Assembly (NCBI GenBank): GCA_022729255.1
Contig: JALDAG010000015.1
Location: 1-20,111, forward strand
Reading direction: 5' to 3'
Source: Candidatus Nanohalarchaeota archaeon
Lineage (GTDB): Archaea; Nanohalarchaeota; Nanosalinia; Nanosalinales; Nanoanaerosalinaceae
Length of the DNA stretch: 20,111 bases
This document shows positions 1 to 20,017 of the stretch, one piece after another. Positions within the stretch are counted from its first letter, which is position 1. Each line of letters starts with the position of its first letter. The notes beneath the pieces are model-generated. The model was not told the DNA's origin. It did no database searches and saw nothing but the letters and a program-made list of their open reading frames with translations. Position numbers and translations under genes: made by a program.

Positions 1-3000
1 GGAATTAAAGGCAAATCACTGATCCTAACAACTTTTCTGATACTAATTTTCGGTCTTGTCATCGGTGTTCTTCCCGGAGACGAAGTCGATGTTGCAGGTG
101 ATACTGTTTCTGTACAGTTGGAAGAAGGATCAAATTTGATCCCTGCCCTTGATGCAGATCTAAACGATATTTTGGATGCGGGCTGCGACATAGGGCGTTT
201 CAGTGACAGCACAGTAGAGGAGCCTTTCATGTACTTCGACAACACTGTTTATGATTATGTGGAGACCGATTCCTTGAGACATGAGGGAAAGGGTCTCTGG
301 GTTCCTGTTAGAAGCGGCTGCAGTTTTGAGGCAGAAACTTATGTCGCCGAACAGATGAACTTGGGGACAGGGAAAAATGTTTTGACCTTCTCTGCCGACA
401 TCGACATCGACTTATTTGAGATGAATGACTGTCAGTTGAGTTTTTTCAGGGGAGATATATCTTCAAGAGAAGAACCATTCGCAGTTTTCCAAGATGGCGA
501 ATTCATCGCAACTGATTCCGTAAGTGAATATACTCCTGTTTATATACCTATTGAAGATGGATGTACATTTGATTTGGACGCTGCTTTCTGGGATTTAGAG
601 GTATCCTCTGATGAAGGAGGTATTATAAGGGGAGAAGAAGCAGGCCGATTTGCAGAGGGAGAAAAAATTGTTTTGAAAGCGGTTCCTGAAGAAGGATATG
701 TTTTTGGTGGATGGGAACTTGAGGGAAGCTCTGAAAAATGTGATGCTGAGGAGAAAATTTGTGAATTCGAGATAGAGGAAGATACGTTTGTCAGATCAAG
801 TTTTGTTGAAGAAGATGAACCAATAGAACCTCCTTGGGATAGCGAAGTTGAGCTGAATGTTGATTCAGGAGATCTTGTCGAGGTAGTGGAACCAGGTGAG
901 GGAGAGTTTAGTTTTGAAGAGGGACAGGCTGTCGACCTTGTTGCAGAGTTTTCACCCGATTTAGAGCATGAACCAGAATTTTCTTGGATCGGTGATCTGG
1001 AGGCTGTGGAAGACCCTGATTCTCACGAAACAATGATCGTTATGTGGGATGATTATCATGTAAAAGCTGTATACGAGGGCGAAAAAATCGAAAGAGAAAC
1101 TTTCGAAGTATATATCTATTCAGGAGATTTTGTTGAGGTTGTTGAGCCCGGTGAAGGTTACCATGAATTTAAGGAAGGCGAAGTAGTTGAACTGGTAGCT
1201 GAAGTTTCTCCAGATCTCGAAACCGACAAAGGATTTTCATGGATAGGAGATATTAGAACATTAGAAGATTCTGAATCCTTGGAAACACAAGTAGAAGTAC
1301 AAAGAGAGATGGAAATCGGCGCTGATATAGATATGTTGGGAGATACTTCGTACAGGGACTGTATTGATGAAAATGGAGAGATAGCAGAGGCTGACGGCGA
1401 ATACATATGTAGGATTGAAGGTGACAGCTGCCCATCCGGATGGGAACAGTATGAGGAATGGTCAACAACAGAGTCTGATACCTGTACAAGTAGCAACTTC
1501 TTCTGTGGAAGTTCGTGTAGCACTGATAGCCATGAATGGGATAATGAACCCGTTGAAACTTGTACTTATCAGAGAACTAGGAGAGGGATTCTACCCACAT
1601 GTCGCACTGATACATGTGAAGCAGAACTTGTTGAAGTCGGCTGTATAAGAGGAGATGCTCCAGAAGAATATGAAGAGGAAACCTATGATCTTATGATTAA
1701 TGTGTATGGAAGAGGTACTACACAGCCTTCAGGTAGACGAAGACATAGTTTTGAAGAGGGTGAAGAAGTCGTAGTAACTGCTGAACCTGCCGAAGGATTT
1801 TTATTCGCTGGTTTTAGAGGAGACTGTCAAGGCACCGAGAATTGTACATTGGAGATGAATTATGACAAGAGAGTAACGGCAACATTTGAGAGAGACAGGG
1901 AGTGCGAGACTGATAGTGACTGTCAACACCTTTTATGCCCTCAGGCTGTAGGTATGGACACACCTATTTGCGATCCTGAGACCAATACATGTAAATGTGG
2001 AGATGGTGAAGAAGAAGAGGTAGTTGAGGAATACGGGCTCAATATTGATATAGAAGGAGAAGGTTCAACAGAACCCCCTGAAGGTTTCAATACATTTGAA
2101 GAAGGTGAATCTGTTGAATTAGTAGCTGAATCAGAAGATGGCTGGAAATTTGATAGATGGTCTGGAAGATGTTCTGGTAGTGACAAAGAATGCGAATTAA
2201 CTATGAACTCTGATAAAAACGTAACAGCACACTTCAAAGAAACAGAACTTATTGGAGAAGGTTCCTTTGATGATTGTGTGTCTGCTGAAGGTGAGGTAGT
2301 CGAGGTTGATGATGGATATATATGTAGGTTTGATAATAGTAGATGTCCGCACCCACGCATCAGCGATCATCAATGGGAACAGTACAAGGACTGGAGCTCA
2401 ACATCTTCTGACTACTGCAGCAGCAGTAACATACTTTGCGGGACTTCATGTAATACTGAAAGTCATGACTGGGCTAACGAACCAGTTGAAACTTGTACCT
2501 ATGAAAGAACAAGAAGCGGTATTAGCATAGGATGTACTGAAACTGTTTGTAGAGCTGATGTCGATCAGATAGGATGTATTATCACAGAGACTGATGAGGA
2601 GGATTATGACAACGACAATGACAACGACAACGACAATGACTACGAGAATGACAATGACAACGACAATGACTACGAGAATGACAATGACAACGACAATGAC
2701 TACGAGAATGACAATGACAACGACAATGATGATGAGGAAGAAAAAATATGTGAACCAGGAGAGACCAGAAGATGTAGTACAACTTGTACATACAGAGAGT
2801 GTGGAGGAGTCAACGACAATTCTTGCAGAAGACAGAGAGAAACAGTCAGAGGAGAGATGGAGTGTCGGGATGACGGTACTTGGGGATCATGTAGTGATAT
2901 AGGACGCTGCCCTGAGGACCAGTGCAGATTCAATTCTGATTGTAGATTTGATGATGATGAAGATGACGAATTCGAAGAATGCGTTGAAAACTGTGCTGAT

Positions 3001-3057
3001 GATCACTCATCACCTTGTTGGGGAGACACAGCATGCTGTGAGGACAGGTGTTCGTAA
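1..3057 (+). CDS. 5'-truncated large secreted or membrane-anchored surface protein: very acidic, cysteine-rich, modular. It contains InlB B-repeat-like domains, two copies of a ~100-aa Cys-rich module, a small Cys knot, an Asp/Asn repeat linker and a C-terminal Cys-rich domain.
   Basis: Frame 1 is open from nt 1 with no stop, so the track start at TTG 118 is not the real start and the gene begins upstream of the window. Nt 19-78 encode the hydrophobic LILTTFLILIFGLVIGVL signal/anchor followed by PGDEVD. Repeated motifs of the G..V.L.A.P..G..F.GW.G.C.G...C...M..D..V.A.F type (e.g. FEEGEEVVVTAEPAEGFLFAGFRGDCQG..CTLEMNYDKRVTATFE and FEEGESVELVAESEDGWKFDRWSGRCSGSDKECELTMNSDKNVTAHFKE) resemble the Listeria/archaeal InlB B-repeat fold. 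More than 55 Cys residues occur in spaced patterns. Glu+Asp content is extreme. The stop is TAA at 3055-3057. Confidence 0.8.
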   Translation, partial: GIKGKSLILTTFLILIFGLVIGVLPGDEVDVAGDTVSVQLEEGSNLIPALDADLNDILDAGCDIGRFSDSTVEEPFMYFDNTVYDYVETDSLRHEGKGLWVPVRSGCSFEAETYVAEQMNLGTGKNVLTFSADIDIDLFEMNDCQLSFFRGDISSREEPFAVFQDGEFIATDSVSEYTPVYIPIEDGCTFDLDAAFWDLEVSSDEGGIIRGEEAGRFAEGEKIVLKAVPEEGYVFGGWELEGSSEKCDAEEKICEFEIEEDTFVRSSFVEEDEPIEPPWDSEVELNVDSGDLVEVVEPGEGEFSFEEGQAVDLVAEFSPDLEHEPEFSWIGDLEAVEDPDSHETMIVMWDDYHVKAVYEGEKIERETFEVYIYSGDFVEVVEPGEGYHEFKEGEVVELVAEVSPDLETDKGFSWIGDIRTLEDSESLETQVEVQREMEIGADIDMLGDTSYRDCIDENGEIAEADGEYICRIEGDSCPSGWEQYEEWSTTESDTCTSSNFFCGSSCSTDSHEWDNEPVETCTYQRTRRGILPTCRTDTCEAELVEVGCIRGDAPEEYEEETYDLMINVYGRGTTQPSGRRRHSFEEGEEVVVTAEPAEGFLFAGFRGDCQGTENCTLEMNYDKRVTATFERDRECETDSDCQHLLCPQAVGMDTPICDPETNTCKCGDGEEEEVVEEYGLNIDIEGEGSTEPPEGFNTFEEGESVELVAESEDGWKFDRWSGRCSGSDKECELTMNSDKNVTAHFKETELIGEGSFDDCVSAEGEVVEVDDGYICRFDNSRCPHPRISDHQWEQYKDWSSTSSDYCSSSNILCGTSCNTESHDWANEPVETCTYERTRSGISIGCTETVCRADVDQIGCIITETDEEDYDNDNDNDNDNDYENDNDNDNDYENDNDNDNDYENDNDNDNDDEEEKICEPGETRRCSTTCTYRECGGVNDNSCRRQRETVRGEMECRDDGTWGSCSDIGRCPEDQCRFNSDCRFDDDEDDEFEECVENCADDHSSPCWGDTACCEDRCS
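871..1350 (+). repeat. Intragenic tandem duplication of a ~85-aa (255-nt) domain (VEVVEPGEG..F.EG..V.LVAE.SPDLE....FSWIGD...)
   Basis: Two adjacent copies (about 871-1125 and 1126-1350) are clearly alignable at protein level (LVEVVEPGEGEFSFEEGQAVDLVAEFSPDLEHEPEFSWIGDLEAVED vs FVEVVEPGEGYHEFKEGEVVELVAEVSPDLETDKGFSWIGDIRTLED). The DNA has diverged, so this is an old duplication. Confidence 0.7.
1357..1647 (+). repeat. Cys-rich module, copy 1 (DCIDENGE...W.QY..WS....D.C.SSN..CG.SC.T.SH.W.NEPVETCTY.RTR.GI...C....C.A.....GCI)
   Basis: About 97 aa with 10 Cys. Paralogous to 2269-2580. A conserved 45-nt stretch gaacc(c/a)gttgaaacttgtac(t/c)tat... is near-identical between the copies (1546-1590 vs 2479-2523). 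Confidence 0.7.
2269..2580 (+). repeat. Cys-rich module, copy 2
   Basis: DDCVSAEGEVVEVDDGYICRFDNSRCP...WEQYKDWSSTSSDYCSSSNILCGTSCNTESHDWANEPVETCTYERTRSGISIGCTETVCRADVDQIGCI aligns residue-for-residue with copy 1, including all Cys positions. Confidence 0.7.
2608..2727 (+). repeat. In-frame tandem repeat: three perfect 30-bp copies (gactacgagaatgacaatgacaacgacaat at 2638-2667, 2668-2697, 2698-2727) preceded by one degenerate copy (2608-2637). It encodes (DYENDNDNDN)n.
   Basis: Counted directly in the sequence. Unit length is a multiple of 3 and the copies are 100% identical. It sits as a low-complexity linker between Cys module 2 and the C-terminal Cys domain. Confidence 0.9.
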
Positions 3058-3069
3058 GAAAGAGCGAAA

Positions 3070-3117
3070 GTAGAAAGATAACAGGATTTTTCTACTTCTC
3101 AATATTTATTTTTTCGC
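3070..3117. terminator. Bidirectional terminator between convergent genes: hairpin GTAGAAA(3070-3076)/TTTCTAC(3089-3095) with a 12-nt loop, then T-tract 3107-3116
   Basis: The inverted repeat and oligo-T run are seen directly. They lie in the 48-bp gap between the stop of the + gene (3057) and the stop of the - gene (3106). Confidence 0.5.
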
Positions 3118-4614
3118 CATCCTGAAAAGCTTCTTAGCTTTTTCTATAATCCCTGAATCCCCGTGTTTTATATCAAGCATAGATTCTATACTGTTGTACA
3201 GTTTTTCAGTATAAGGAAACCAGTTCAGTTCATCATCTTTATTCCTATTTACCATTACCGATTTCGGCTCAACGAAAGACATCAAACCTTCAGGACCATG
3301 GTAACGTCCTATACCGCTTTTTTTAACTCCTCCAAATGGTGTGTAAGGATTACCGATGTTTTTAACGACGTCGTTTATGTAGCAGTTACCAGTCTTTAAC
3401 ATAGAAGCAATTTTTTTACCTTTTTCTACATCTTCTGTCCAAACACTGGAGTTCAAACCATAAACACTGTCATTAGCAAGTTCAACTGCTTCTTGAACAC
3501 CTTCAAACCCCATTACAGGTATTACCGGTCCAAAGGTTTCTTTTCTCATAACATCCATCTCGTTTGTCACCTGGTCAAGAACGATAGGTTTAAGGAAGTT
3601 GCCCTGATGTTCGAACTCGGTCAACATCTCAGCACCCTTAAAAACAGCGTCATCTACCTGATTTTTGATTAGCTCTATTTGCTCCTCCCTTATCATAGGG
3701 CCCATCTCTGAAGTTTTACTATCACCTATGTCGACCTTTTTAACTTCCTCAAGAAGTTTTTCAATAAATCTTTTCTTGATCGATCTCTCAACATAAACTC
3801 TTTCTGAAGAAACACAGATCTGACCACTATTTGCAAGAGAGCCGTAAACAACCCCTTTGACAGCTCTATCCAGATCAGCGTCCTCGAAAACTATGAAAGG
3901 ATCTTTACCACCTAGCTCTAATTCCACATCAATTAGGTTTTCAGAAGCCTTTTTCATGACTTCTTTACCCGTTTCAACTCCTCCAGTGAAAAATATCTTG
4001 TCAGGCTTGTTCTCTATAATTTTTTCCCCTACTTCTCCGCCTCCATGAACCACTTGGAAAACGTTTTGCGGAAAACCGGCTTTATCTATAAGTTCTTCAA
4101 TCTTCTTACCTGTCAAAGGAGTAATTTCAGAGGTTTTCAGTATCACAGTGTTTCCAGCAACAAGCGCTGTGATCGAAGGTATCAGAGATATCTGGAAAGG
4201 GTAATTCCAAGGAGATATCACGGATACCACACCGTAGGGCTGGTATTCAACGTATGAATAATTTTTACTAAACTCTATAGGAGTTCTCCTTTTCTCTTTT
4301 TTCAGTATCTTTTCTGAATTATTCTCGTAATACTTTATGAAATCTAAAGTGGTCATTATTTCCGCCATCAGTATTTCTACGTCTGGTTTACCTGTATCGG
4401 ATTTCAAAGTGTGTAAGATGTCGTCCAGATTGTTTAAAACAGTTTTTCTGAATTCCTTGAGAAAAAAACATCTATCAGCTATGTCAAGGTTTTTCCACTC
4501 TTTAAGAGATGTCCTAGCAAGAAAAAACTTTTTTTCTATTTCTTGGTCGGTCGAAACTTTAACAGAACCTTTTTTTTCATTGTCCACGGGGTCGAATGCA
4601 TGGAGATCTTTCAT
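3106..4614 (-). CDS. NAD(P)-dependent aldehyde dehydrogenase (ALDH superfamily)
   Basis: 502 aa. ELGGKDP glutamate-active-site motif, catalytic Cys context GQICVSSERVYV, and Rossmann FTGGVETGKEVM. Typical ALDH length. Confidence 0.85.
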   Translation of the reverse strand: MKDLHAFDPVDNEKKGSVKVSTDQEIEKKFFLARTSLKEWKNLDIADRCFFLKEFRKTVLNNLDDILHTLKSDTGKPDVEILMAEIMTTLDFIKYYENNSEKILKKEKRRTPIEFSKNYSYVEYQPYGVVSVISPWNYPFQISLIPSITALVAGNTVILKTSEITPLTGKKIEELIDKAGFPQNVFQVVHGGGEVGEKIIENKPDKIFFTGGVETGKEVMKKASENLIDVELELGGKDPFIVFEDADLDRAVKGVVYGSLANSGQICVSSERVYVERSIKKRFIEKLLEEVKKVDIGDSKTSEMGPMIREEQIELIKNQVDDAVFKGAEMLTEFEHQGNFLKPIVLDQVTNEMDVMRKETFGPVIPVMGFEGVQEAVELANDSVYGLNSSVWTEDVEKGKKIASMLKTGNCYINDVVKNIGNPYTPFGGVKKSGIGRYHGPEGLMSFVEPKSVMVNRNKDDELNWFPYTEKLYNSIESMLDIKHGDSGIIEKAKKLFRMAKK

Positions 4615-8594: not shown

Positions 8595-9914
8595 ATGGAT
8601 AAACCTAGATTTTTAGCCAAACTTTTCTCCATCCTCCTTTGGTTGATCATATTTTTGACAGTTTTCCAGTTCTTGATAGGAGCAAGAAACATAGCTAATT
8701 ATGAAAAACAAGTACTTGAACAAAATATAATACATGAAATCGATAACAGGATTGAAAGAGGTATAGATGTATTTACTGAGATAAAGGAGAAAGAAGAGCA
8801 CTACTATGTTTCCATGATAAAAGACGAGATCGGAAAGGTGGAGTACGAGATACCCAAAGAAAATGACAGGGAGTTCTCGGTATTTCTATTCGGTGGTTCA
8901 TCAGTCGTTTTTCCTGTTGGAGAACATATGAACTTCCCTGAACATCTCGAAGAAAAGGTAAAAAATAGGACGGAAGCTAATTTTTCGATCTACAACTTTG
9001 GTATGCCGGGTGTATCCACAAGTACAATACTTAACTCTCTGGAAAGGATTCTTGAAGTGAAAGAACCCGACATGGTGGTGATATATACAGGTCACAACGA
9101 CTATTTTTTAACACATCACATGTTTACGGAAAACACCCCTGATATTTTTTATGATGAAAACGTTTTGTGGCCTCTTTACAACAGTCTGGGTCCCTTGATT
9201 GATAGAGAAAGCGCTTACATGTATGATTCCAAGAGGATAACGGAGTACAGGATGATGACCTTAGCACATTCCATAGGATTGGTTGATGGAAAAAGAATAT
9301 TTGATTTAAAGAAAAAGACCGATAAAATTATAGAGGAGGAATACTTTGAGGAAAATATTAAAGATATCCAGAGTTTAACAGAAGAGAGAAGTATTGATTT
9401 GGTGTTCCTAACAACCATATCCAGGATCAGAGGAGTTAGAACAGAAGAGATGTTTCTTTCAAAGGATGAGATGGCAGAATTTCATGATTTTGTGGATAGA
9501 GCTGAAAGTTATTTGGAACAAGAGGAATTCGATAGATCTCTCGAAATATTTGGAAAAGCACTCGATATAAATGATAATAGCTCTAAAATCTATGAGAGAA
9601 TAGGTGAGATATATGAGGGTAGAGAGGAATACATGAAAGCCCAGGAGAACTTTATAAAATCTAAGGACAGAAATGTTTTCGGTCAGGATCCCAGAGCTCC
9701 TTCTTATTTCAATGAAATACTTAGAAATGTTGAGAAAGAGAAAGTATACACAGTTGATGTTCGGAAAAAGTTACTGGAGGATGAGGATTATCCTTTGATG
9801 GACAATGATTTCTTTGACAGTGAAATACATATAGGAGGAGATAACACTGGTCAGGTTGCTGAAAAAATCTTTTTAGGACTTGAAAAAAGAGGATTGATTG
9901 ATGATTTCGAATAA
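8595..9914 (+). CDS. Membrane-anchored SGNH/GDSL-family hydrolase with inserted TPR-like repeats (paralog A)
   Basis: N-terminal TM (FLAKLFSILLWLIIFLTVFQFLIG). SGNH blocks: I VFLFGGSSV, II NFGMPGVS, III IYTGHNDY, V FFDSEIH. TPR-like helices (SYLEQEEFDRSLEIFGKALDIND..IYERIGEIYEGREEYMKAQENF). Clear paralog of 11917-13215. Confidence 0.65.
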   Translation: MDKPRFLAKLFSILLWLIIFLTVFQFLIGARNIANYEKQVLEQNIIHEIDNRIERGIDVFTEIKEKEEHYYVSMIKDEIGKVEYEIPKENDREFSVFLFGGSSVVFPVGEHMNFPEHLEEKVKNRTEANFSIYNFGMPGVSTSTILNSLERILEVKEPDMVVIYTGHNDYFLTHHMFTENTPDIFYDENVLWPLYNSLGPLIDRESAYMYDSKRITEYRMMTLAHSIGLVDGKRIFDLKKKTDKIIEEEYFEENIKDIQSLTEERSIDLVFLTTISRIRGVRTEEMFLSKDEMAEFHDFVDRAESYLEQEEFDRSLEIFGKALDINDNSSKIYERIGEIYEGREEYMKAQENFIKSKDRNVFGQDPRAPSYFNEILRNVEKEKVYTVDVRKKLLEDEDYPLMDNDFFDSEIHIGGDNTGQVAEKIFLGLEKRGLIDDFE

Positions 9915-9949: not shown

Positions 9950-10933
9950 ATGGAATTAGGAAAATATTCTGATATGGATCTGTTGGAAAAGGTCGTTGTT
10001 CATACACCAACTACTACTTCTATAGATTCGGTAAAAGAAAACCCTGAAAAACATCTTTTCAATGAAATACCTGACAAGAAAAGGTTTCTTGAGGAAAAAA
10101 CCATGTTCACAGATATTTTGAAGGATAACGGTGTTGATGTGTTACACCTGACTGAACTACTGATGAGGGCAGAGAAAGACCTAGATGATAAATTAATCGA
10201 TGAGATTGTTAATCTGATGTATGTTAGGGATATAGGTACTGTTATCCTGGATTATCTGGTGAGATGCAGTATGTCGGAGAGATTGAGACAGAAGGAGGAA
10301 GAAATATTTGATTTTTTAATAAAGCATCAAGGCTTAAATCGTGATTACGAGGTTTTAAGACCGGTAAAACCGATTGAAGGAGGGGATATATTTATTCCTA
10401 GGTATAACACGATGATTGTTGGAAACTCCTTGAGAACATCGGAGCAAGGAATTATTGAACTAGGGGAAGGATTGGTAGATAGCTCTATAGATAAAATAAT
10501 TATGTTAAATGTTCCTAGAGAGGATAGTGCGATACATCTGGATATGGTGTTTTCCCAGCTTGAGAAAAACCTTTTCATGGTTGATAAAAGATTTTCAAAA
10601 AATATGGAGTGTTTTTTGATAGAAGTATGTTCTGATGGACCGAAAATGAGGAAAAATAAAAAAAGTATCGATGAAATTTTGAAAGAAGAATTAGGTAGAG
10701 ATGTGGAAGTTTTAAAAGTAGATGAGAGAAAAGAACAGAAGATGTGCGGATTTAACGTCTTACCGATTGAAAGTTCGAAAGTCATAGCTTTTCAAGAAAA
10801 CAGGAATATAAACAGGTTGATACGAAACATGGGAATTGAAGTCATCGAGGTAATGGGACGAGAACTGATGAAGGGTAATGGCGGACCAAGATGCATGACG
10901 TTGCCATTAAAAAGGAATAGAGGTTCAAGATAA
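9950..10933 (+). CDS. Arginine deiminase family (guanidino-modifying/amidinotransferase superfamily) enzyme, short form
   Basis: 327 aa. ADI-like N-terminus (L.KVVVHTP...LF...........F...L...GVDVLHLTELL). Catalytic His motif SAIHLDMVFSQL (ADI: MHLDTVF). C-terminal catalytic Cys motif GNGGPRCMTLPLKR (ADI: GGG.CM..P). SD AGGTGA at 9940-9945. It lacks the ~80-aa helical insertion of classical 410-aa ADIs. Confidence 0.65.
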   Translation: MELGKYSDMDLLEKVVVHTPTTTSIDSVKENPEKHLFNEIPDKKRFLEEKTMFTDILKDNGVDVLHLTELLMRAEKDLDDKLIDEIVNLMYVRDIGTVILDYLVRCSMSERLRQKEEEIFDFLIKHQGLNRDYEVLRPVKPIEGGDIFIPRYNTMIVGNSLRTSEQGIIELGEGLVDSSIDKIIMLNVPREDSAIHLDMVFSQLEKNLFMVDKRFSKNMECFLIEVCSDGPKMRKNKKSIDEILKEELGRDVEVLKVDERKEQKMCGFNVLPIESSKVIAFQENRNINRLIRNMGIEVIEVMGRELMKGNGGPRCMTLPLKRNRGSR

Positions 10934-10935
10934 TT

Positions 10936-11910
10936 ATGGTCAAGAGAAGTCTGGTAAAGTTAAGTAATAATAAAAAAGAGAGGTTAGAAAAGATACTTTC
11001 TATATCAGAATATGTCAAAAGACAGGATTATTCTGATAAAAAACTCGAAGGAAAAAATATAGCTCTTTTGTTTGAAAAACCCTCGACAAGAACAAGATCT
11101 GCGTTTGAAATAGCTGTAAAAGATTTAGGAGGTAACACAGTATTTTTGGATAAAGAAGAAATTCATTTAGGTTATAGAGAAAGTCTAGAGGACACTGCAA
11201 AGGTTCTTGAAAGTTATTTTGACGGTGTAGGTTTTCGAGGTATGAGACATGAAAAAGTTGAGAGACTGGATCAACACACATCAATCCCTGTTTGGAATCT
11301 TTTAACTGATAAATTCCACCCTACGCAGGTTTTATCCGATTTTTTCACGATTGAAGAAGTCTTTGAGAAGGATTTGTCAGATATAAAGCTTGCATATATT
11401 GGTAACGGTATCAACAATGTTTTAAATTCTTTGATAGTCGGGGCAGCGAAGACAGGTATGAATATGAGGATTGTAACCCCTGAAGAACTCAGACCTGATA
11501 GAAAATTAATGGTAAAATCCAGAAACATAGCCAGGAAACAAAATTCTACTTTAAAGTGTTTTTCAAACGTTGAAAAAGGTTTGGAGGAAGTTGATGTAGT
11601 TTATACAGATGTATGGGTTTCCATGAATGATCCGAAATCAGAATGGGATGAAATGATAGATAAACTTAGTCCATACAGTGTTGACAATGAAAAAATGGAT
11701 TTGACCTCCGAAAACTCTGTTTTTATGCACTGTCTTCCAGCCTTACATGATAAAGAAACAATTCTAGCTGACAAAATATGTGAAAGACATGGAATCGAAT
11801 GTTTGGAAGTCAGTGACAATGTCTTCAGATCCGATAGTTCGATTGTTTTTCAGCAGTCAGAGAACAAGTTGCATACCCTGAAATCCTTGTTGATAGATTC
11901 GTTTGATTAG
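10936..11910 (+). CDS. argF: Ornithine carbamoyltransferase
   Basis: 324 aa. Carbamoyl-phosphate motif STRTR (FEKPSTRTRSAFEIA), HPTQ, the ornithine-binding region DVWVSMND (canonical DVWVSMG) and the OTC-specific FMHCLPALHD (ATCase has HPLP). It starts 2 bp after the upstream gene. Whether it is catabolic (arcB-like) or anabolic cannot be decided. Confidence 0.85.
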   Translation: MVKRSLVKLSNNKKERLEKILSISEYVKRQDYSDKKLEGKNIALLFEKPSTRTRSAFEIAVKDLGGNTVFLDKEEIHLGYRESLEDTAKVLESYFDGVGFRGMRHEKVERLDQHTSIPVWNLLTDKFHPTQVLSDFFTIEEVFEKDLSDIKLAYIGNGINNVLNSLIVGAAKTGMNMRIVTPEELRPDRKLMVKSRNIARKQNSTLKCFSNVEKGLEEVDVVYTDVWVSMNDPKSEWDEMIDKLSPYSVDNEKMDLTSENSVFMHCLPALHDKETILADKICERHGIECLEVSDNVFRSDSSIVFQQSENKLHTLKSLLIDSFD

Positions 11911-11916
11911 GAATAC

Positions 11917-13215
11917 CTAGTTAACCATAGAACTTTCTTCAAGACCCTTGAATATTTTCTTGGCTATTATTTCGTTGTATTCAGAGTTGAAGTGAACCCA
12001 GTCATCAAAGAGATCGGGTTTAAACAGAAGTTTATTGTTGTCTTCCTTCAACAACTTTTTGAGATCTACAACTGTTACGTGAGAACCGTTCAAACTTCTG
12101 ATAAAATTGTTTATGGAGGATTTGGCTCTGACGTCATAGCTGAAATCATCCTTGTCTCTGGCAATCCTTAAACTTCTCAGAGATTTATCCGTTTCTCCCA
12201 ACTCTTCATATATCAGGCCTTTCTTGTAATGAATCATAGCATTCTTACTGTTTAACTTTTCCGCATCTTTGAAGTTTTCTATAGCCTGTTCATAATTTTG
12301 TTTATTCAAATCTTCGAAACCTCTATCCCTATAATTGATGAAATCATCTCTCGATGTTTCATTTACGAAATCATAATCTATCTCAAAAGGCCTTATCTTT
12401 AGATTTGAACTTACTGTGATGAAAACTGTTTCAACGCCTTTTCTCTCGGTGATTTCCACAATTTTTTCCATATTTGTCTTATAAGAGTCTAAAGCATTTT
12501 CATTGACTAAATTCATTATGTCATATACCTTTTCCGAGTCAATTATACCAACTGACATACCTAGATTGATAAGATAAGGTGTAATGGTATTTCTTTTCAA
12601 ATCCTCTATTTCGTGATTAGGCCTTCCTGAAAGAAAGGTCTTTCTGTAGAGATACCATATCAGATTATTTTCAAGTAAATCAAGTTCATCCCTGATTATA
12701 TTATGGGATTCAAAGTGGTCGTTGTGCCCGGAGTATATCAGAACCATTTCAGGTTTTTCCATATTGATGCTTTTGTTTAAGCTTTTGACAATTGATGTGG
12801 AACGAGCACCACTTTTTGCTAGGTTATAGACTTTTTTACTCTGATTATTTTCCTGTTCAAAAATGTTTTCGAGATAAAGAGGTATATATTTCTTTTCGCA
12901 GAAAGGTGTGACCATAGAGGAACCACTAAAAACATATATATGATCTGAAGCATTACTATCAATCTTGAATGTTTCCCTAAAACATTTTCTTTCTATCTCA
13001 ATAAACTTTTCATTATTTGAATTCAAATTATCAAAGTAATGACCATTCTCATTATATCTAAGACCTCTGAAACTCGTGTTTAGTTCCTCTAGATCAATAT
13101 TATTGATATTATTAGAACTTGAAACAAACTGAATTATAGGGATGATGGTCAAGGACCATAAAATTAAGATGAGGACTATAAAAGTTTTTTCCCATGGTTT
13201 TGAGGTTTCATCCAT
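11917..13215 (-). CDS. Membrane-anchored SGNH/GDSL-family hydrolase with inserted TPR-like repeats (paralog B)
   Basis: N-terminal TM (TFIVLILILWSLTIIPIIQFV). Blocks: I YVFSGSSMV, II NLAKSGARS, III IYSGHNDH, V LFDDWVH (DxxH). TPR-like LNKQNYEQAIENFKDAEKLNSKNAMIHYKKGLIYEELGETDKSLRSL. Collinear alignment with 8595-9914 over about 350 aa. Its stop is 6 bp from the convergent OTC stop. Confidence 0.65.
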   Translation of the reverse strand: MDETSKPWEKTFIVLILILWSLTIIPIIQFVSSSNNINNIDLEELNTSFRGLRYNENGHYFDNLNSNNEKFIEIERKCFRETFKIDSNASDHIYVFSGSSMVTPFCEKKYIPLYLENIFEQENNQSKKVYNLAKSGARSTSIVKSLNKSINMEKPEMVLIYSGHNDHFESHNIIRDELDLLENNLIWYLYRKTFLSGRPNHEIEDLKRNTITPYLINLGMSVGIIDSEKVYDIMNLVNENALDSYKTNMEKIVEITERKGVETVFITVSSNLKIRPFEIDYDFVNETSRDDFINYRDRGFEDLNKQNYEQAIENFKDAEKLNSKNAMIHYKKGLIYEELGETDKSLRSLRIARDKDDFSYDVRAKSSINNFIRSLNGSHVTVVDLKKLLKEDNNKLLFKPDLFDDWVHFNSEYNEIIAKKIFKGLEESSMVN

Positions 13216-16414: not shown

Positions 16415-17116
16415 TCAGTCAGCATTTTTGCTGTAGAACATTACTTCGGTATCACCTGATCTGATAGCTTCTTTAATACTTTTAACATTTTTTTCGCAGA
16501 GTAAAACCGTTTTCCAAGAAGAAACATCTTTCTTTGAATGCATATCAGAATTAGCTACATAGTTCAGTCCTTCCATACCTACATGAGAGAAATAATCGTC
16601 ACGGTTACCGATTTCCCAAGCATCGAATAAATCCCTGAACTTTTCAAGACGATCCCAGAGGTAAGTATTTCCTTCATGTCTACTTGAAGTGGTTCCATTC
16701 ACAGGGTGAGGGGCTATGGCAACACCTCCCTGTTTTTTAATGGCCTTGATTATGGGTTCCGCTTCCTGATTAGGATCTATGAACTCTGTAACGTCGAGAC
16801 CCAGGATATGAAAACCCCTTGTATTGGCGGTAAACTCTATCCCAGGGATTACGAGCAGCCCATACTTCTCCATAGCTAATTCCTTGCATCTCTCTATCTC
16901 GTTGTAGTACTCATCAAGTTGTTCACGGATAAGACTTCTCCTGTACTTCTTATCAACATTTTTGTTTTTCAGACTGTCAGCGTCCAGAAAATGATCTGTT
17001 ATCGCTATAACATCGAAACCTTCTTTTCCATATATATTTACTACTTCTTCTATACTGAGATCTCCATCACTGTTTTTTGTATGTATGTGGAGATCGCACA
17101 ACAGTTTTTTTGACAT
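16415..17116 (-). CDS. PHP-domain (polymerase/histidinol-phosphatase-like) metal-dependent phosphoesterase
   Basis: 233 aa. N-terminal LCDLHIHTKNSDGDLSIEEV...VIAITDH. His/Asp metal ligands are spaced as in PHP domains. Confidence 0.75.
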   Translation of the reverse strand: MSKKLLCDLHIHTKNSDGDLSIEEVVNIYGKEGFDVIAITDHFLDADSLKNKNVDKKYRRSLIREQLDEYYNEIERCKELAMEKYGLLVIPGIEFTANTRGFHILGLDVTEFIDPNQEAEPIIKAIKKQGGVAIAPHPVNGTTSSRHEGNTYLWDRLEKFRDLFDAWEIGNRDDYFSHVGMEGLNYVANSDMHSKKDVSSWKTVLLCEKNVKSIKEAIRSGDTEVMFYSKNAD

Positions 17117-17156
17117 ACATATTTCTTTGAAAACACACCACTAAAACTGTTTTGGT

Positions 17157-17909
17157 TTAATCGGTCTGTTCTCTCAAATCATCTAACTTTTTCTCAAGTT
17201 TTTCTCTTATTACTTCGTTTAGGTCTCTGCTCAGACGGAAGTAATGGTTTACAGATAATACCCTGGTCTTGAAATCAGATATCTTTTTATTTTCTTTCAC
17301 CCTTTGATTAAGCTCCATAGTTGCATCACGGTATAGATGTTTGAAAGTTGCTATCTTAGGCGATACATAGTTCTGATTAAATTCCAAAACAGCCTTTCTG
17401 GTCTTGTAAGCTATGTCCAAAGAATTAACTATGTCGACAAGGAAAACTCCGTAAACCATCCCAAGGAAGAAAACACCTACTGAAGAGATATTAAGATCGT
17501 TTAAGAGGTACTGGAAGTAAGGAAACAGGGAATACTTGAAAACTCCTGCAAGTATCAACCAGTAAACAAGGAATCTTAGACAGACATGTCCATGGATATT
17601 GAACTTTCTATCGGAGTAGTCCCATAGCCTTATACGAAAAAATCTCTGGAATAGGAAACCTGTTATGTATTCCATTACACCTATTGAAACTAAGAACAAA
17701 GCTGCACTTCCTAAAACTGTTAATTCATTGGAGTAAACTGTGAGTAAATAGGTGATAAATCCTCCGAAACCATATATCGGTAGATATGGTCCTTTGAGAA
17801 ATCCTGGGTTTAAAAAGTGTCCGGTTTCCTGAGATCTGTATGTTAATTCGATTATCCATCCGAGAGCTGCAAAAATCAGGTAAGTGAGTAAAAGGTTTCC
17901 TATATCCAT
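17157..17909 (-). CDS. Polytopic membrane protein, DUF1113 ('putative ABC-transporter type IV', PF06541-like) with C-terminal charged coiled-coil tail
   Basis: 250 aa. N-terminal LGWIIELTYRSQETGHFLNPGFLKGPYLPIYGFGG is reminiscent of that family. About 5 TM segments, then a 70-aa K/E-rich tail. Confidence 0.5.
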   Translation of the reverse strand: MDIGNLLLTYLIFAALGWIIELTYRSQETGHFLNPGFLKGPYLPIYGFGGFITYLLTVYSNELTVLGSAALFLVSIGVMEYITGFLFQRFFRIRLWDYSDRKFNIHGHVCLRFLVYWLILAGVFKYSLFPYFQYLLNDLNISSVGVFFLGMVYGVFLVDIVNSLDIAYKTRKAVLEFNQNYVSPKIATFKHLYRDATMELNQRVKENKKISDFKTRVLSVNHYFRLSRDLNEVIREKLEKKLDDLREQTD

Positions 17910-17981: not shown

Positions 17982-18302
17982 CTATAGCCTTTCTTCAACC
18001 CATTCAACTATATCATCCGATTCCATAACACCTGAAAAACCATCTTTCTTCTCTCCATCTATAAATAAGACGACATGAGGAATACTTCTAACTCCAAGAT
18101 CTTCTGAGACTTCAGGCAACTCATCTATGTTGACCTTCACAAAATTAACGGAACTCATCTCTTTACCACACTTCTCAAATTTAGGTCCGAGTTTTTTGCA
18201 TGGGAGACACCATTCAGCCCAAAAATCCACTACCACGGGGTTTTCTTCGGATTTTTTCAGGACCTTTTTTTCAAACTCTTCCTCATTCTTTATCTCTTCC
18301 AT
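17982..18302 (-). CDS. trxA: Thioredoxin
   Basis: 106 aa. Active site WAEWCLPCK (Trx WCGPC variant) and cis-Pro context SIPHVVLF. Its start is 11 bp downstream of the stop of the Trx-CcdA gene. Confidence 0.85.
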   Translation of the reverse strand: MEEIKNEEEFEKKVLKKSEENPVVVDFWAEWCLPCKKLGPKFEKCGKEMSSVNFVKVNIDELPEVSEDLGVRSIPHVVLFIDGEKKDGFSGVMESDDIVEWVEERL

Positions 18303-18313
18303 AAATATTCACC

Positions 18314-19504
18314 TCACAAAAACGGCAAAAAATACTGCAGGTAGTAGTAAGCCAAGAAAAACATGATTAGAGAGGCTGCAAGTGTAGTCCATGTAACCAC
18401 ATTTTCTTGGTCGAACCACATTTTTTTCGTTAAAACCGCTCCAAGGAAAATAACAAGTTCTATGAACATGTAAAAGAACAGGTACATCAAAATATAAGCC
18501 CCTGAAGCCATCGTAGTAACACCGGCGTCTGCCAGCACCCCTGTGAATACAAGTGGAAGACCTATCGAACACGGCAGTTCAACTATTACCATCACCAGTG
18601 CAAAAAGAATAATTATACCTGCTGTTGCAAACAAACCTGATTTAGGGTTTTTAAGGACTTGGGTGACTTTTCTTCTCACCTTTGAAACGTACTTGTTCCC
18701 TGTGGTCTCACACGTGGGTCCGTACTTGTAAAACTGCAAAAATTCCTTGAAAAAATAAATACCTGCTGTAAGTGCTACAAGACCTATAAATAATTCTAGA
18801 AGCCCTAGATAACCTATTATAGCGTTTATTAGGCCGTACCATGCGAATACTATGATTCCATAAACTGAGACTGTGGTCAGAATAAAGAGTCCTCCATAAA
18901 AAAGTATTTTCTTCCTTGAATCAAGTTTCAAAACGATGCCAAGTATCAATAACAAAGCTCCTATACTACAGACATTGAAACCATCTGCTGTACCTAGTAC
19001 AGTGGCCAGCAAGGGTAAGGAAAATTTGGATATATCTGTTTCACCTATAAACGGAAGATTAACCATTCTTTCATCTCTATCACCTTCATCGACTTTACCC
19101 TTCACAACGTTTTCTATACCTCTCTGTATGGTTGAATCGAACCCTTGGAAGAACTCTCCACCCACAAAAGTCATGGGAACAGCTATCCTTTCGATAGTTA
19201 CATTGTATTCTTCGGCAAGATCGTCAAGTTTTTGCATAGATTCTTCATCATAAATGTTGTGCTTGTAAACATCCAGTTCAGGATGGTCTTCAAAAAGGGT
19301 TTGGTGGAACTTTTCTTGATCAGTACATACAGGACAACCATCCATGTAAAAGTAGTGGTACTCTATTTTACTTTCTTCATCTGAAACATTGTTATTATCA
19401 TCTCCGATTGTTTCTGTTCCACTTACAGCTCCAATAAGAAATACCGAGATCGCTAATATTACTAGAAGTGTTTTGATAATTCTTTTCATGTGTTCCACCA
19501 ACAA
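18314..19504 (-). CDS. Fusion of an extracytoplasmic thioredoxin/glutaredoxin-like domain (CPVC) to a CcdA/DsbD-type transmembrane thiol-disulfide electron transporter
   Basis: N-terminal signal/anchor (IIKTLLVILAISVFLIGAVSG). Trx-like YFYMDGCPVCTDQEKF....MTFVGGEFFQGF. Then 6-8 TM helices with the two conserved CcdA Cys, in FNVCSIGALLLILG and VELPCSIGLPLVFTG. Confidence 0.8.
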   Translation of the reverse strand: MLVEHMKRIIKTLLVILAISVFLIGAVSGTETIGDDNNNVSDEESKIEYHYFYMDGCPVCTDQEKFHQTLFEDHPELDVYKHNIYDEESMQKLDDLAEEYNVTIERIAVPMTFVGGEFFQGFDSTIQRGIENVVKGKVDEGDRDERMVNLPFIGETDISKFSLPLLATVLGTADGFNVCSIGALLLILGIVLKLDSRKKILFYGGLFILTTVSVYGIIVFAWYGLINAIIGYLGLLELFIGLVALTAGIYFFKEFLQFYKYGPTCETTGNKYVSKVRRKVTQVLKNPKSGLFATAGIIILFALVMVIVELPCSIGLPLVFTGVLADAGVTTMASGAYILMYLFFYMFIELVIFLGAVLTKKMWFDQENVVTWTTLAASLIMFFLAYYYLQYFLPFL

Positions 19505-19534
19505 CTTATTATTTGAAACAGGTTAAAAAGATAG

Positions 19535-19551
19535 GTTTCATATCCTGAAAC
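19535..19551. promoter_or_regulatory. Inverted repeat GTTTCA-tatcc-TGAAAC, about 31-47 bp upstream of the Trx-CcdA start, plus direct repeats TGAAACAG at 19514-19521 and 19546-19553
   Basis: Seen directly in the 67-bp gap between the regulator stop (19571) and the Trx-CcdA start (19504). It overlaps the expected BRE/TATA position (ggttaaaaagatagg). Confidence 0.4.
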
Positions 19552-19570
19552 AGCAGGTTTAACACCGTTT

Positions 19571-20017
19571 CTAACAGTATTTTTTGTCCAATTTCACTAA
19601 ATTAGTGTTACCGTTGGGAAGTTTTTCTATAATTCCTTTTTGTTCCATTTTTTTAAGAATCCTGCTGACCTTAACCTTTGAAAGCCCGGTCTTTTTGACA
19701 ATCTTCGACTGCATGATTTCTTTTTCCCTGAAAAGTACCTCCATAACTTTTCTATCATTTTCTTCCATCAATTTAAGAATAGTACCTGTTTCTACATGGT
19801 CTTTCTCCTCATCTTTGAAAAGCACGAAAATAAGCATACCTGTGAAAAGTCCTAAAGAGCCCATGAAAGGTATGAAGAGGTATGGTGGTACAGCACATCC
19901 ACAGTATACATCTTCCCCTATATTTAACTGGGTGTAAAGTGATGATAAAGAAACCGCTAGTACGAATAAAGATATCAGGACCATCCCAGCCACATACTTT
20001 TTCCTGCTTTTCATCAC
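19571..20017 (-). CDS. Membrane-anchored winged-HTH transcriptional regulator with 2 TM helices and a short external loop carrying a CGC motif
   Basis: 148 aa. Positively charged N-terminus MMKSRKK, TM1, the loop TQLNIGEDVYCGCAVPPY, TM2, then the cytoplasmic wHTH ILKLMEENDRKVMEVLFREKEIMQSKIVKKTGLSKVKVSRILKKMEQKGIIEK (MarR/TrmB-like). Confidence 0.7.
   Translation of the reverse strand: MMKSRKKYVAGMVLISLFVLAVSLSSLYTQLNIGEDVYCGCAVPPYLFIPFMGSLGLFTGMLIFVLFKDEEKDHVETGTILKLMEENDRKVMEVLFREKEIMQSKIVKKTGLSKVKVSRILKKMEQKGIIEKLPNGNTNLVKLDKKYC

Follow-up and report, generated by a model that had tools for sequence, protein, structure and literature searches.

A candidate membrane-tethered one-component regulator with an external Cys-x-Cys loop and its operator at a thioredoxin/CcdA-like relay in DPANN archaea

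Introduction

In ToxR, TcpP and CadC, extracytoplasmic cysteines carry a disulfide state that depends on the thiol-disulfide machinery of the envelope and that modulates the activity of the regulator. Two of these proteins, ToxR and TcpP of Vibrio cholerae, are described in two reports as transmembrane transcription regulators (PMC7496328, PMC11323476). Among archaea, the work on Sulfolobus acidocaldarius presents ArnR and ArnR1 as one-component regulators anchored by two transmembrane (TM) helices (PMC12107092, PMC13286277). ArnR has a winged helix-turn-helix (wHTH) at its N-terminus, a HAMP domain and a pair of C-terminal TM helices, it is an activator of archaellum genes, and no cysteine sensor is described in it (PMC12107092). 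OxsR of Haloferax volcanii is described as a thiol-based regulator of the TrmB family (PMC9426492). Here we describe a regulator gene of a different design, found in a stretch of 20,111 nucleotides from Candidatus Nanohalarchaeota archaeon (contig JALDAG010000015.1 of assembly GCA_022729255.1; hereafter the window). It encodes two TM helices with a Cys-x-Cys (CxC) motif in the loop between them and a winged helix behind them, and it lies next to genes for a thioredoxin/CcdA-like fusion protein and a thioredoxin.

To our knowledge, almost nothing is known about sensing or gene regulation in DPANN archaea, a group of tiny organisms that depend on hosts and have been brought into culture barely or not at all. 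The window is AT-rich, with 35-43% G+C, and its encoded proteins are acidic; it is most closely related to contigs from Candidatus Nanoanaerosalina halalkaliphila NHA20 and from a second Nanoanaerosalina metagenome-assembled genome (MAG). These Nanoanaerosalina relatives belong to the Nanohaloarchaeota, within the DPANN archaea, and were described from sediments of soda-saline lakes and from anaerobic enrichments (PMC9765267). The literature searched in full text yielded no description of DUF7343, the regulator, its operator or the module as a whole. On balance, we judge it probable that the regulator is a membrane-tethered one-component regulator of surface thiol chemistry, whose external CxC motif controls the operator of a thioredoxin/CcdA-like relay. 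The analysis began from an earlier note on the same DNA, which had proposed three consecutive minus-strand genes here, a regulator, a fusion and a thioredoxin; the open reading frames (ORFs) of all three lie where it placed them.

Results

The regulator gene occupies 19571..20017 on the minus strand and encodes 147 amino acids (aa) when read from the ATG at 20014; the ORF list starts it at the GTG at 20017. Its product has an N-terminal hairpin of two TM helices followed by a C-terminal winged helix of DUF7343/MarR-like type. The hydrophobic segments cover roughly residues 7-27 and 45-66, the N-terminus carries positive charges (KSRKK), and the loop between the helices reads TQLNIGEDVYCGCAVPPY. 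Within this loop, the CGC codons at 19895..19903 (minus strand) specify C38-G39-C40, a predicted extracytoplasmic pair of sensor thiols. If both helices span the membrane, the loop should lie outside, because the wHTH must reach DNA in the cytoplasm and because the N-terminus is strongly positive. An external CGC loop between two TM helices was a central claim of the earlier note, and the motif does lie at that place, flanked by the charge-positive N-terminus on one side and the DNA-binding C-terminus on the other; the charges and the domain order thus point to a topology with the CxC loop outside.

The wHTH domain covers residues 76-142 (19589..19789, minus strand), includes a conserved recognition helix, GLSKVKVSRIL, and is seen in Pfam matches, in alignments and in a structural model. 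Pfam matches to wHTH families span residues 84-143: DUF7343 (PF24034) at 50.5 bits against a cut-off of 27.6, HTH_24 at 31.8 against 21.9, and MarR (PF01047) at 30.5 against 24.6, with weak matches at the HTH level to TrmB, MarR and MsvR models. An AlphaFold (AF2) model built from 38 subfamily members, with a predicted local distance difference test score (pLDDT) of 79.7, places a helix at 2-31, a short turn, the loop at 38-43 (CGCAVP), a second helix at 44-67, a linker and the wHTH at 76-142, and its structural neighbours are regulators of MarR/ArsR type. The canonical MarR architecture, a soluble dimer with dimerisation helices on both sides of the wHTH, was not found in this protein: the TM hairpin stands N-terminal to the wHTH and the chain ends about 5 residues past the wing. 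For these reasons we describe the regulator as MarR-like in its wHTH and not as a canonical MarR protein.

Conservation of the cysteines depends on which relatives are examined. A first homolog search found CGC in the two closest relatives only, and most matches, of an Altiarchaeota type 136 aa long, had no cysteine in the loop. Regulators that adjoin fusion genes in other genomes present another picture, with CxC at the same position in all six (CGC in four, CDC in one, CSC in one). A profile built from seven sequences of this kind recovered 55 proteins that score at least 118 bits, and all of them have C-x-C at that position, usually as the sole cysteines of the protein; the next tier of matches, at 91 bits or less, held none with CxC. 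Since the motif is invariant in the top tier and absent from the next, it defines a subfamily. An alignment of 38 of its sequences leaves C38, C40, Q102 and R118 as the only invariant residues; the external loop of the CxC family is 12-18 residues long, and in most cases x-[IV]-P comes after CxC. When 1.84 billion representatives were searched exhaustively with HMMER, 5,253 members of the family were found at E 1e-3 or better, 1,226 of them at 1e-10 or better, and 74 of the top 148 representatives carry CxC; the subfamily spans at least 74 clusters at 50% identity. Whether the CGC motif would prove to be conserved was a question raised in the earlier note, and across the subfamily (the 55 top profile matches and the 38-sequence alignment) the answer is that CxC is invariant.

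Relatives outside the subfamily keep the scaffold and differ in the loop. An Altiarchaeota-type member without loop cysteines (locus L009, 5001..9391) is followed by a small EF-hand-like protein, a CARDB-like protein of 555 aa and a MacB/FtsX ABC transporter. The existence of such cysteine-free members beside an ABC system indicates that the two-TM scaffold serves non-thiol signals too. Other regulators have a C-x5-C loop (SSCTHGPSCP) or a CPCPVGSCP loop (L008, 5001..8772; L097, 3001..6516; L098, 3001..6489) and are followed directly downstream by HMA P-type ATPases and by membrane proteins that are Cys-rich or have an HMA domain; judged by these neighbours, they look like candidate external metal sensors on the same scaffold.

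We inspected the neighbourhoods of 12 CxC regulators (the window, L003/L011, L015, L012, L013, L034, L049, L091, L093, L094, L095 and L096). The fusion gene, or a split form of it that consists of an exported CPHC protein and a 233-aa membrane protein of SfLAP type, is present in 12 of 12, as against none of five non-CxC relatives with a fusion or SfLAP-like gene. Three of those five neighbourhoods hold HMA P-type ATPases, one holds the CARDB/MacB-type ABC genes beside the cysteine-free regulator, and one, that of the C-x3-C protein P0007, continues with an exported CPDC thioredoxin-like protein. The earlier note had asked for homologs that co-localise with thiol-disulfide genes, and this contrast between CxC and non-CxC loci, with the qualification that P0007 has a thioredoxin-like neighbour, bears the expectation out. 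All three genes stand together in Ca. Nanoanaerosalina halalkaliphila, with flanks that differ from those of the window. The CxC regulator lies directly upstream of the fusion in Undinarchaeota-, Nanohaloarchaea- and Pacearchaeota-like and other contigs, and in an Aenigmarchaeota MAG it is divergent from a split pair of exported CPHC protein and SfLAP protein. Elsewhere the arrangement is looser: in L015 the regulator is 1.6 kb from the fusion, with CmpB and PHP genes between them, and in L091 a SLAC1/TehA-like gene intervenes. A nanohaloarchaeal locus has OsmC and a TehA/SLAC1-like transporter as neighbours. In L049 (JAHYJW010000002.1, 147 kb, labelled Patescibacteria group bacterium KA32), the gene of a CSC-loop regulator overlaps the fusion gene; this regulator shares its CGCP/CSCP sequence group with a protein labelled Pacearchaeota, which leaves two readings, an erroneous bin label or a transfer of the regulator between domains.

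The earlier note had seen an inverted repeat over the promoter of the fusion; it is there, at 19535..19551. This palindrome, GTTTCA-N5-TGAAAC, lies just upstream of the TATA-box-like element of the fusion and thioredoxin genes, is the sole exact copy in the window, and is conserved across lineages. Between it and a third half-site lies TTTTTAA (19523..19529, minus strand), which by its consensus we take to be the archaeal TATA box; the element recurs as TWKWWAA at the same position and spacing in seven loci from different lineages. The third half-site, GTTTCA (19514..19519, minus strand), begins 3 nt downstream of the TATA-like element and lies within CTGTTTCA, a sequence with five copies in the window against 1.18 expected, two of them in the intergenic region between regulator and fusion. 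It reads GTTTCA in the window, L011, L015, L012 and L034 and GTTTCT in L013 and L091. The layout shared by these seven loci is thus palindrome, 5 nt, TWKWWAA, 3 nt, GTTTC half-site, 12-29 nt, and the annotated start codon of the fusion. In three orthologous intergenic regions the palindrome and the downstream TTTAACCTGTTTCA are invariant; the regulators of the other two are 90% and 58% identical to that of the window.

All fetched loci and the window, 710,653 nt together, contain 13 exact copies of GTTTCA-N5/6-TGAAAC against 0.16 expected from composition, and all 13 are at the promoter of a fusion gene or of a regulator-fusion operon. At one mismatch or fewer it is present in 12 of 12 CxC loci; no exact palindrome was found in some 70 Patescibacteria loci that lack the regulator or in the five non-CxC loci. 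Fusion promoters carry it in the Nanoanaerosalina relatives, in Nanohaloarchaea, in an Undinarchaeota MAG, in the Aenigmarchaeota MAG and in Pacearchaeota-like contigs. In L015 and L091 the palindrome is directly upstream of the fusion although the regulator is displaced or another gene intervenes, which identifies the fusion as the conserved target. In lineages where regulator and fusion overlap, the operator is upstream of the regulator. Archaeal repressors usually have their sites on either side of the TATA box. Because the operator sites flank the TATA box here as well, we favour repression with moderate confidence, and the regulator is most likely a repressor of the fusion operon. Autoregulation through the same operator was considered for the lineage of the window and rejected: no GTTTCA palindrome occurs in the 94 nt available upstream of the regulator, nor in 160 nt in L011. 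Palindromes with two mismatches at 11560, 11868, 17674 and 19371 were also set aside; they lie inside coding regions, and their number is near chance (five found, 2.06 expected).

The promoter pattern was then used by itself. A metagenome collection was scanned with the 37-nt pattern GTTWCA-N5-TGAAAC-N5-TWKWWAA-N3-GTTTC, for which about 0.2-2 chance matches are expected per 1e12 nt, and 50 stretches were returned. An ORF of the regulator family, of thioredoxin-like/CcdA-SfLAP-like type, or of both stands at the motif in 48 of the 50. A regulator was present in 39 stretches, with CxC in 33 (one of them a truncated copy), C-x3-C in three and C-x5-C of the SCGAAQIC type in three; most stretches without a regulator have less than 500 nt of upstream sequence. 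A thiol-disulfide ORF lies downstream of the motif in 41, mostly starting within about 25 nt. The 40 regulator ORFs recovered comprise 33 distinct sequences. One return, L107, looks like a chance match.

The fusion gene (18314..19489, minus strand) encodes 391 aa: a signal or anchor segment, an exported thioredoxin/glutaredoxin (Trx/Grx)-like domain and a six-helix CcdA/SfLAP-like membrane domain. The start is probably the ATG at 19489, rather than the TTG at 19504 of the ORF list (18314..19504), since a Shine-Dalgarno-like GGTGG (19495..19499, minus strand) stands 5 nt upstream of that ATG and the 391-aa homolog P0040 matches that start; the longer GGTGGAA is invariant in the three aligned orthologous regions. 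The active-site motif CPVC (19325..19336, minus strand; C57 and C60 in the 396-aa numbering) lies in a domain with Trx/Grx profile and fold matches. Together with the signal or anchor segment, it affirms the exported CPVC domain that the earlier note had described. Five cysteines are invariant in 41 aligned homologs, namely the CPVC pair, C179, C265 and C312. The codon of C179 (18968..18970, minus strand; DGFNVCS) is in helix 1 of the membrane domain and corresponds to the NPC motif of SfLAP/DsbD-type homologs, and that of C312 (18569..18571, minus strand; ELPCS) is in helix 4 and corresponds to their LPC motif. C265 (18710..18712, minus strand; YGPTC) falls between membrane helices 3 and 4, in a loop that flanking K/R residues suggest is cytoplasmic; it is specific to the window-type subfamily of Patescibacteria and DPANN archaea, is absent from the distant fusions L094, L095, L096 and L091, and could be a docking thiol for a cytoplasmic donor.

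How the membrane domain should be classified depends on the level at which one asks. Apart from a weak Glrx-like match, direct Pfam and NCBIfam scans of the fusion were empty; a profile search of PDB sequences with the fusion alignment found Trx/Grx proteins for the N-domain only and no CcdA; and Pfam has no match for any of 120 listed relatives. Homology emerges step by step. The family hidden Markov model (HMM) finds more distant fusions, adjoining related regulators, at E 1e-17 to 1e-46; of these distant homologs, L096 reaches Pfam DsbD_TM (PF02683) at 27.7 against a cut-off of 27.1, and L091 and L093 reach SfLAP (PF11139) at 49 and 43 against a cut-off of 35. The membrane domain has a six-helix core with the CcdA fold. 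Because fold and transitive homology agree and a direct match is missing, we regard it as a divergent member of the CcdA/DsbD-SfLAP superfamily and not as a strict Pfam DsbD. The CcdA/DsbD conduit proposed in the earlier note thus stands at the level of fold and superfamily, and both of its TM cysteines are invariant; as a DsbD assignment in Pfam or NCBIfam it does not stand. The fusion family is large, with 252 relatives in a collection of one genome per species, mostly Patescibacteria plus DPANN archaea, and several homologs have CPHC as their active site.

The third gene (17982..18302, minus strand) encodes a thioredoxin of 106 aa, with WCLPC at 18198..18209, a preceding GAGGTGA, no signal sequence and an N-terminus that is not hydrophobic, as in a cytoplasmic protein. 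It scores 99.8 bits against TIGR01068, above the cut-off of 96.8, and 92.3 bits against Pfam Thioredoxin (PF00085). It starts 11 nt past the stop codon of the fusion, the distance that the earlier note had given for it. The order fusion-thioredoxin is also found in L003/L011 and L015, and in loci of this Nanoanaerosalina type the spacing points to a thioredoxin gene that is translationally coupled to the fusion. Gene adjacency suggests that the thioredoxin is the electron donor of the relay in Nanoanaerosalina-type loci only. As a general neighbour of the fusion family the thioredoxin was rejected, with two of 80 loci.

Other parts of the window deserve a brief description. Downstream of the thioredoxin gene, at 16415..17909 on the minus strand, are a CmpB-like membrane protein (PF06541) and a PHP-domain protein. 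In the Nanoanaerosalina MAG of L015, a CmpB and PHP pair (2410..3903) sits between regulator and fusion; in Ca. N. halalkaliphila, radical-SAM and Na/Pi-cotransporter genes replace the pair. As the pair is near the module in the window and in L015 and occupies different places, it seems to accompany the module while its position shifts. At the far end of the window, 1..3057 on the plus strand encodes a very acidic protein (267 D+E) for which the earlier note had claimed more than 55 cysteines in a secreted protein; our count is lower, 52 Cys in 979 residues read from position 118. Three divergent domains of InlB B-repeat type (Flg_new_2) can be recognised in it, along with Cys-rich modules that are duplicated and a long low-complexity stretch of DNDNDNDYEN. 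Its reading frame is open to the start of the window, with a hydrophobic segment there that resembles a signal or anchor, and this indicates that the gene is cut by the window edge. To regard this Cys-rich protein as a client of the relay, as the earlier note had proposed, would be pure speculation; no link connects it with the operator. Two paralogous proteins of about 435 aa, each with an N-terminal anchor and GDSL/SGNH-lipase-like and TPR regions, are encoded in opposite orientation at 8595..9914 (plus strand) and 11917..13215 (minus strand), and they flank genes for arginine deiminase (9950..10933) and ornithine carbamoyltransferase (10936..11910).

Discussion

These observations can be assembled into a working model. 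In this model, the two-TM hairpin would expose the CxC loop of 12-18 residues on the outer face of the membrane while the winged helix stays in the cytoplasm. There the regulator, presumably as a dimer, would bind the palindrome GTTTCA-N5-TGAAAC and the third GTTTCA half-site around the TATA box and so block TBP, TFB and RNA polymerase. The thioredoxin, through its WCLPC site, would give electrons to the CcdA-like six-helix domain (C179 and C312, plus the subfamily-specific C265), this domain would reduce its own fused and exported CPVC domain, and the CPVC domain may in turn reduce or isomerise the disulfides of surface and secreted proteins. Oxidation of the CxC motif, whether by oxidants or by the relay's own oxidised thioredoxin-like domain, and whether to a strained intramolecular disulfide or to one between subunits, would shift TM2 and the winged helices; the operator would then be released and more relay made. 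The disulfide of a vicinal CxC is strained and fairly oxidising, and peptides with CGC act as mimics of protein disulfide isomerase. It is this disulfide chemistry, together with thiol-disulfide target genes and OsmC/TehA-like neighbours, that makes a redox switch the favoured reading of the loop.

A number of observations weigh against this account. About 70 Patescibacteria loci have the fusion with neither regulator nor operator, so that the regulator is an add-on, found almost only in DPANN-labelled loci (L049 being the exception). The linkage counts take loci as found, with shared ancestry uncorrected. Some of the metagenome matches are duplicates of one organism or known contigs, and the recall of the scan is partly circular, because the pattern was derived from seven loci that already held the gene pair. 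The motif also precedes a pyridine-nucleotide-disulfide-oxidoreductase-like gene (L113, 1018..2429) and a membrane protein with a CFKC DsbA-like domain (L114, 8971..9999). On the side of the relay, the thioredoxin adjoins the fusion in two of 80 genome loci of the fusion family, both from Nanoanaerosalina, which makes that linkage lineage-specific; neither the window fusion nor the 41 aligned homologs match the DsbD/CcdA models of Pfam or NCBIfam, DsbD_TM (PF02683) and DsbD_2 (PF13386) among them; and only C312 is in the usual LPC context, C179 being in NVC and not the usual NPC, while the distant homologs have both NPC and LPC. A CPxC site, CPHC in several homologs, is typical of oxidising DsbA/Grx-type proteins, which means that the exported domain may be an oxidase or isomerase. 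Lastly, sister subfamilies with other cysteine spacings adjoin metal-efflux genes and keep metal sensing alive. Separately, in L138 (862..1888) the operator/TATA pattern precedes a gene of another kind; with L113 and L114, this suggests that some lineages may have a regulon that extends beyond the fusion.

The strongest competitor to a redox switch holds that the CxC loop senses thiophilic metals (Cu(I), Cd, Hg, Zn) through a thiolate site in the dimer, the derepressed thioredoxin/CcdA-like system then serving in Scs-type repair of copper stress. CxC motifs bind Cu(I) in CopY and CCS, C-x5-C and CPCPVGSCP regulators have HMA P-type ATPases and Cys-rich or HMA membrane proteins downstream of them, the fusion alignment has weak PDB profile matches to Scs and copper-resistance thioredoxin-like proteins, and the P0003 locus holds a PadR gene and an HMA ATPase within 4 kb. 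Yet no metal transporter is under the operator in 12 of 12 CxC loci, where thioredoxin-like and CcdA-like genes always follow it, and in the nanohaloarchaeal locus the presence of OsmC and a TehA/SLAC1-like transporter nearby speaks for stress by oxidants or thiols instead. Regulators with SCGAAQIC-type C-x5-C loops also occur at thioredoxin-like and SfLAP operons, so cysteine spacing alone cannot separate metal from redox. We consider metal sensing by the CxC subfamily unlikely.

Two further explanations would each remove one half of the proposed circuit, and both seem to us distinctly improbable. In one of them the protein does control the operon by way of the operator, but the CxC motif is structural, a constitutive disulfide between subunits or a docking site for the fusion, and the signal passes through TM-TM contact with the CcdA-like domain or through regulated proteolysis of the tether. 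Such an arrangement would suit a loop that is very short and has no folded sensor domain, as well as the cysteine-free family members beside MacB-type ABC transporters, which imply that the scaffold works without thiols; cleavage of the membrane-bound archaeal ArnR has, moreover, been reported (PMC12107092). It sits poorly with a CxC motif that is invariant, supplies the only two cysteines of most members and tracks thiol-disulfide targets, as expected of a specificity-determining sensor rather than of a generic structural element. The other explanation leaves the sensor in place and reverses the relay: the exported CPxC domain would act like DsbA and introduce disulfides into secreted Cys-rich proteins, the membrane domain would serve to re-oxidise it, and the thioredoxin would be unrelated or have some other role. 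The CPxC sites do resemble those of DsbA and Grx rather than those of ResA/TlpA-type reductases, thioredoxin adjacency is rare in the fusion family, and a secreted protein such as the one with 52 Cys in the window would need disulfide formation. Against an oxidase stand the CcdA fold of the membrane domain with its DsbD_TM/SfLAP homology and the apparent translational coupling of thioredoxin to fusion in Nanoanaerosalina-type loci. In the CcdA/DsbD superfamily, those members that are known pass reducing equivalents to the outside.

A redox-sensing regulator of its own relay also allows a bolder and rather doubtful extension, in which the CxC loop is itself a thiol-disulfide exchange partner of the exported CPxC domain, the circuit is a closed-loop homeostat of surface thiols, and the scaffold is re-tuned by the cysteines of its loop. 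Were the closed loop real, the regulator would read the redox poise of its target's active site with about 15 external residues. Were the re-tuning real, CxC, Cx3C and some Cx5C loops would stand for thiol-disulfide chemistry, other Cx5C and CPCPxxxCP loops for metal efflux and loops without cysteine for ABC exporters, and the family would amount to a general, previously unrecognised class of extracytoplasmic one-component sensors in DPANN archaea.

Several consequences follow from the favoured reading and from the loci themselves. The module offers a concrete DPANN regulon, with a subfamily of regulators that comprises no fewer than 74 clusters at 50% identity, a 17-nt operator in a fixed position relative to the TATA box, and a defined target. 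If the regulator does sense the state of the loop, it would rank with the smallest transmembrane signalling devices that one can conceive of, made up of two helices, a single Cys-x-Cys and a single winged helix, and would be the first archaeal candidate for a sensor of the extracytoplasmic thiol-disulfide state. A large family of membrane proteins that has no Pfam match in its window-type subfamily gains a functional hypothesis and a tie to the CcdA/DsbD-SfLAP superfamily. In practical terms, the operator pattern alone finds these loci in metagenomes and can serve as an aid to annotation.

Comparison with known systems

The relay is the part that most resembles what is already known. As in the CcdA/DsbD relays, for which Thermus thermophilus CcdA (PDB 5VKV), the CcdA-ResA pair of Bacillus subtilis, DsbD of Escherichia coli and ScsB-ScsC may stand, there is a cytoplasmic thioredoxin, a set of six helices with cysteines in helices 1 and 4, and an exported acceptor with a thioredoxin fold. 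The fusion described here differs in that its acceptor is fused N-terminally and has a Grx/DsbA-like CPxC site, in the NVC of TM1 and in a third invariant cysteine (YGPTC); it falls below the Pfam DsbD thresholds, is nearer to SfLAP (PF11139), and is centred on Patescibacteria and DPANN archaea.

Among soluble thiol regulators, OxsR, MsvR and OhrR/MarR are, like the regulator of the window, small proteins with a single wHTH, and in theirs the oxidation of cysteines alters DNA binding. Those proteins are soluble and use cytoplasmic cysteines to sense oxidants in the cytoplasm, whereas the Cys pair here is predicted to lie outside the membrane and a TM hairpin takes the place of the MarR dimerisation helices. 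Compared with the membrane-anchored ArnR, the domain order is the opposite one, no HAMP match was found, the TM helices are N-terminal and the loop carries CxC, so that the protein cannot be classed with ArnR.

With ToxR, TcpP and E. coli CadC the regulator would share the principle that one polypeptide spans the membrane and binds DNA directly. Those proteins are bacterial, control virulence or pH genes, and consist of an OmpR-type wHTH at the N-terminus, one TM helix and a sensor domain that is folded in the periplasm. The regulator of the window has its domains in the opposite order, the hairpin of two TM helices is N-terminal, there is a loop only, and the target is the thiol-disulfide relay itself; none of the architectural features of the ToxR family is found, and the likeness would be one of function only. 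The principles are familiar, and the regulator family, its regulon and the minimal design of its sensor are new.

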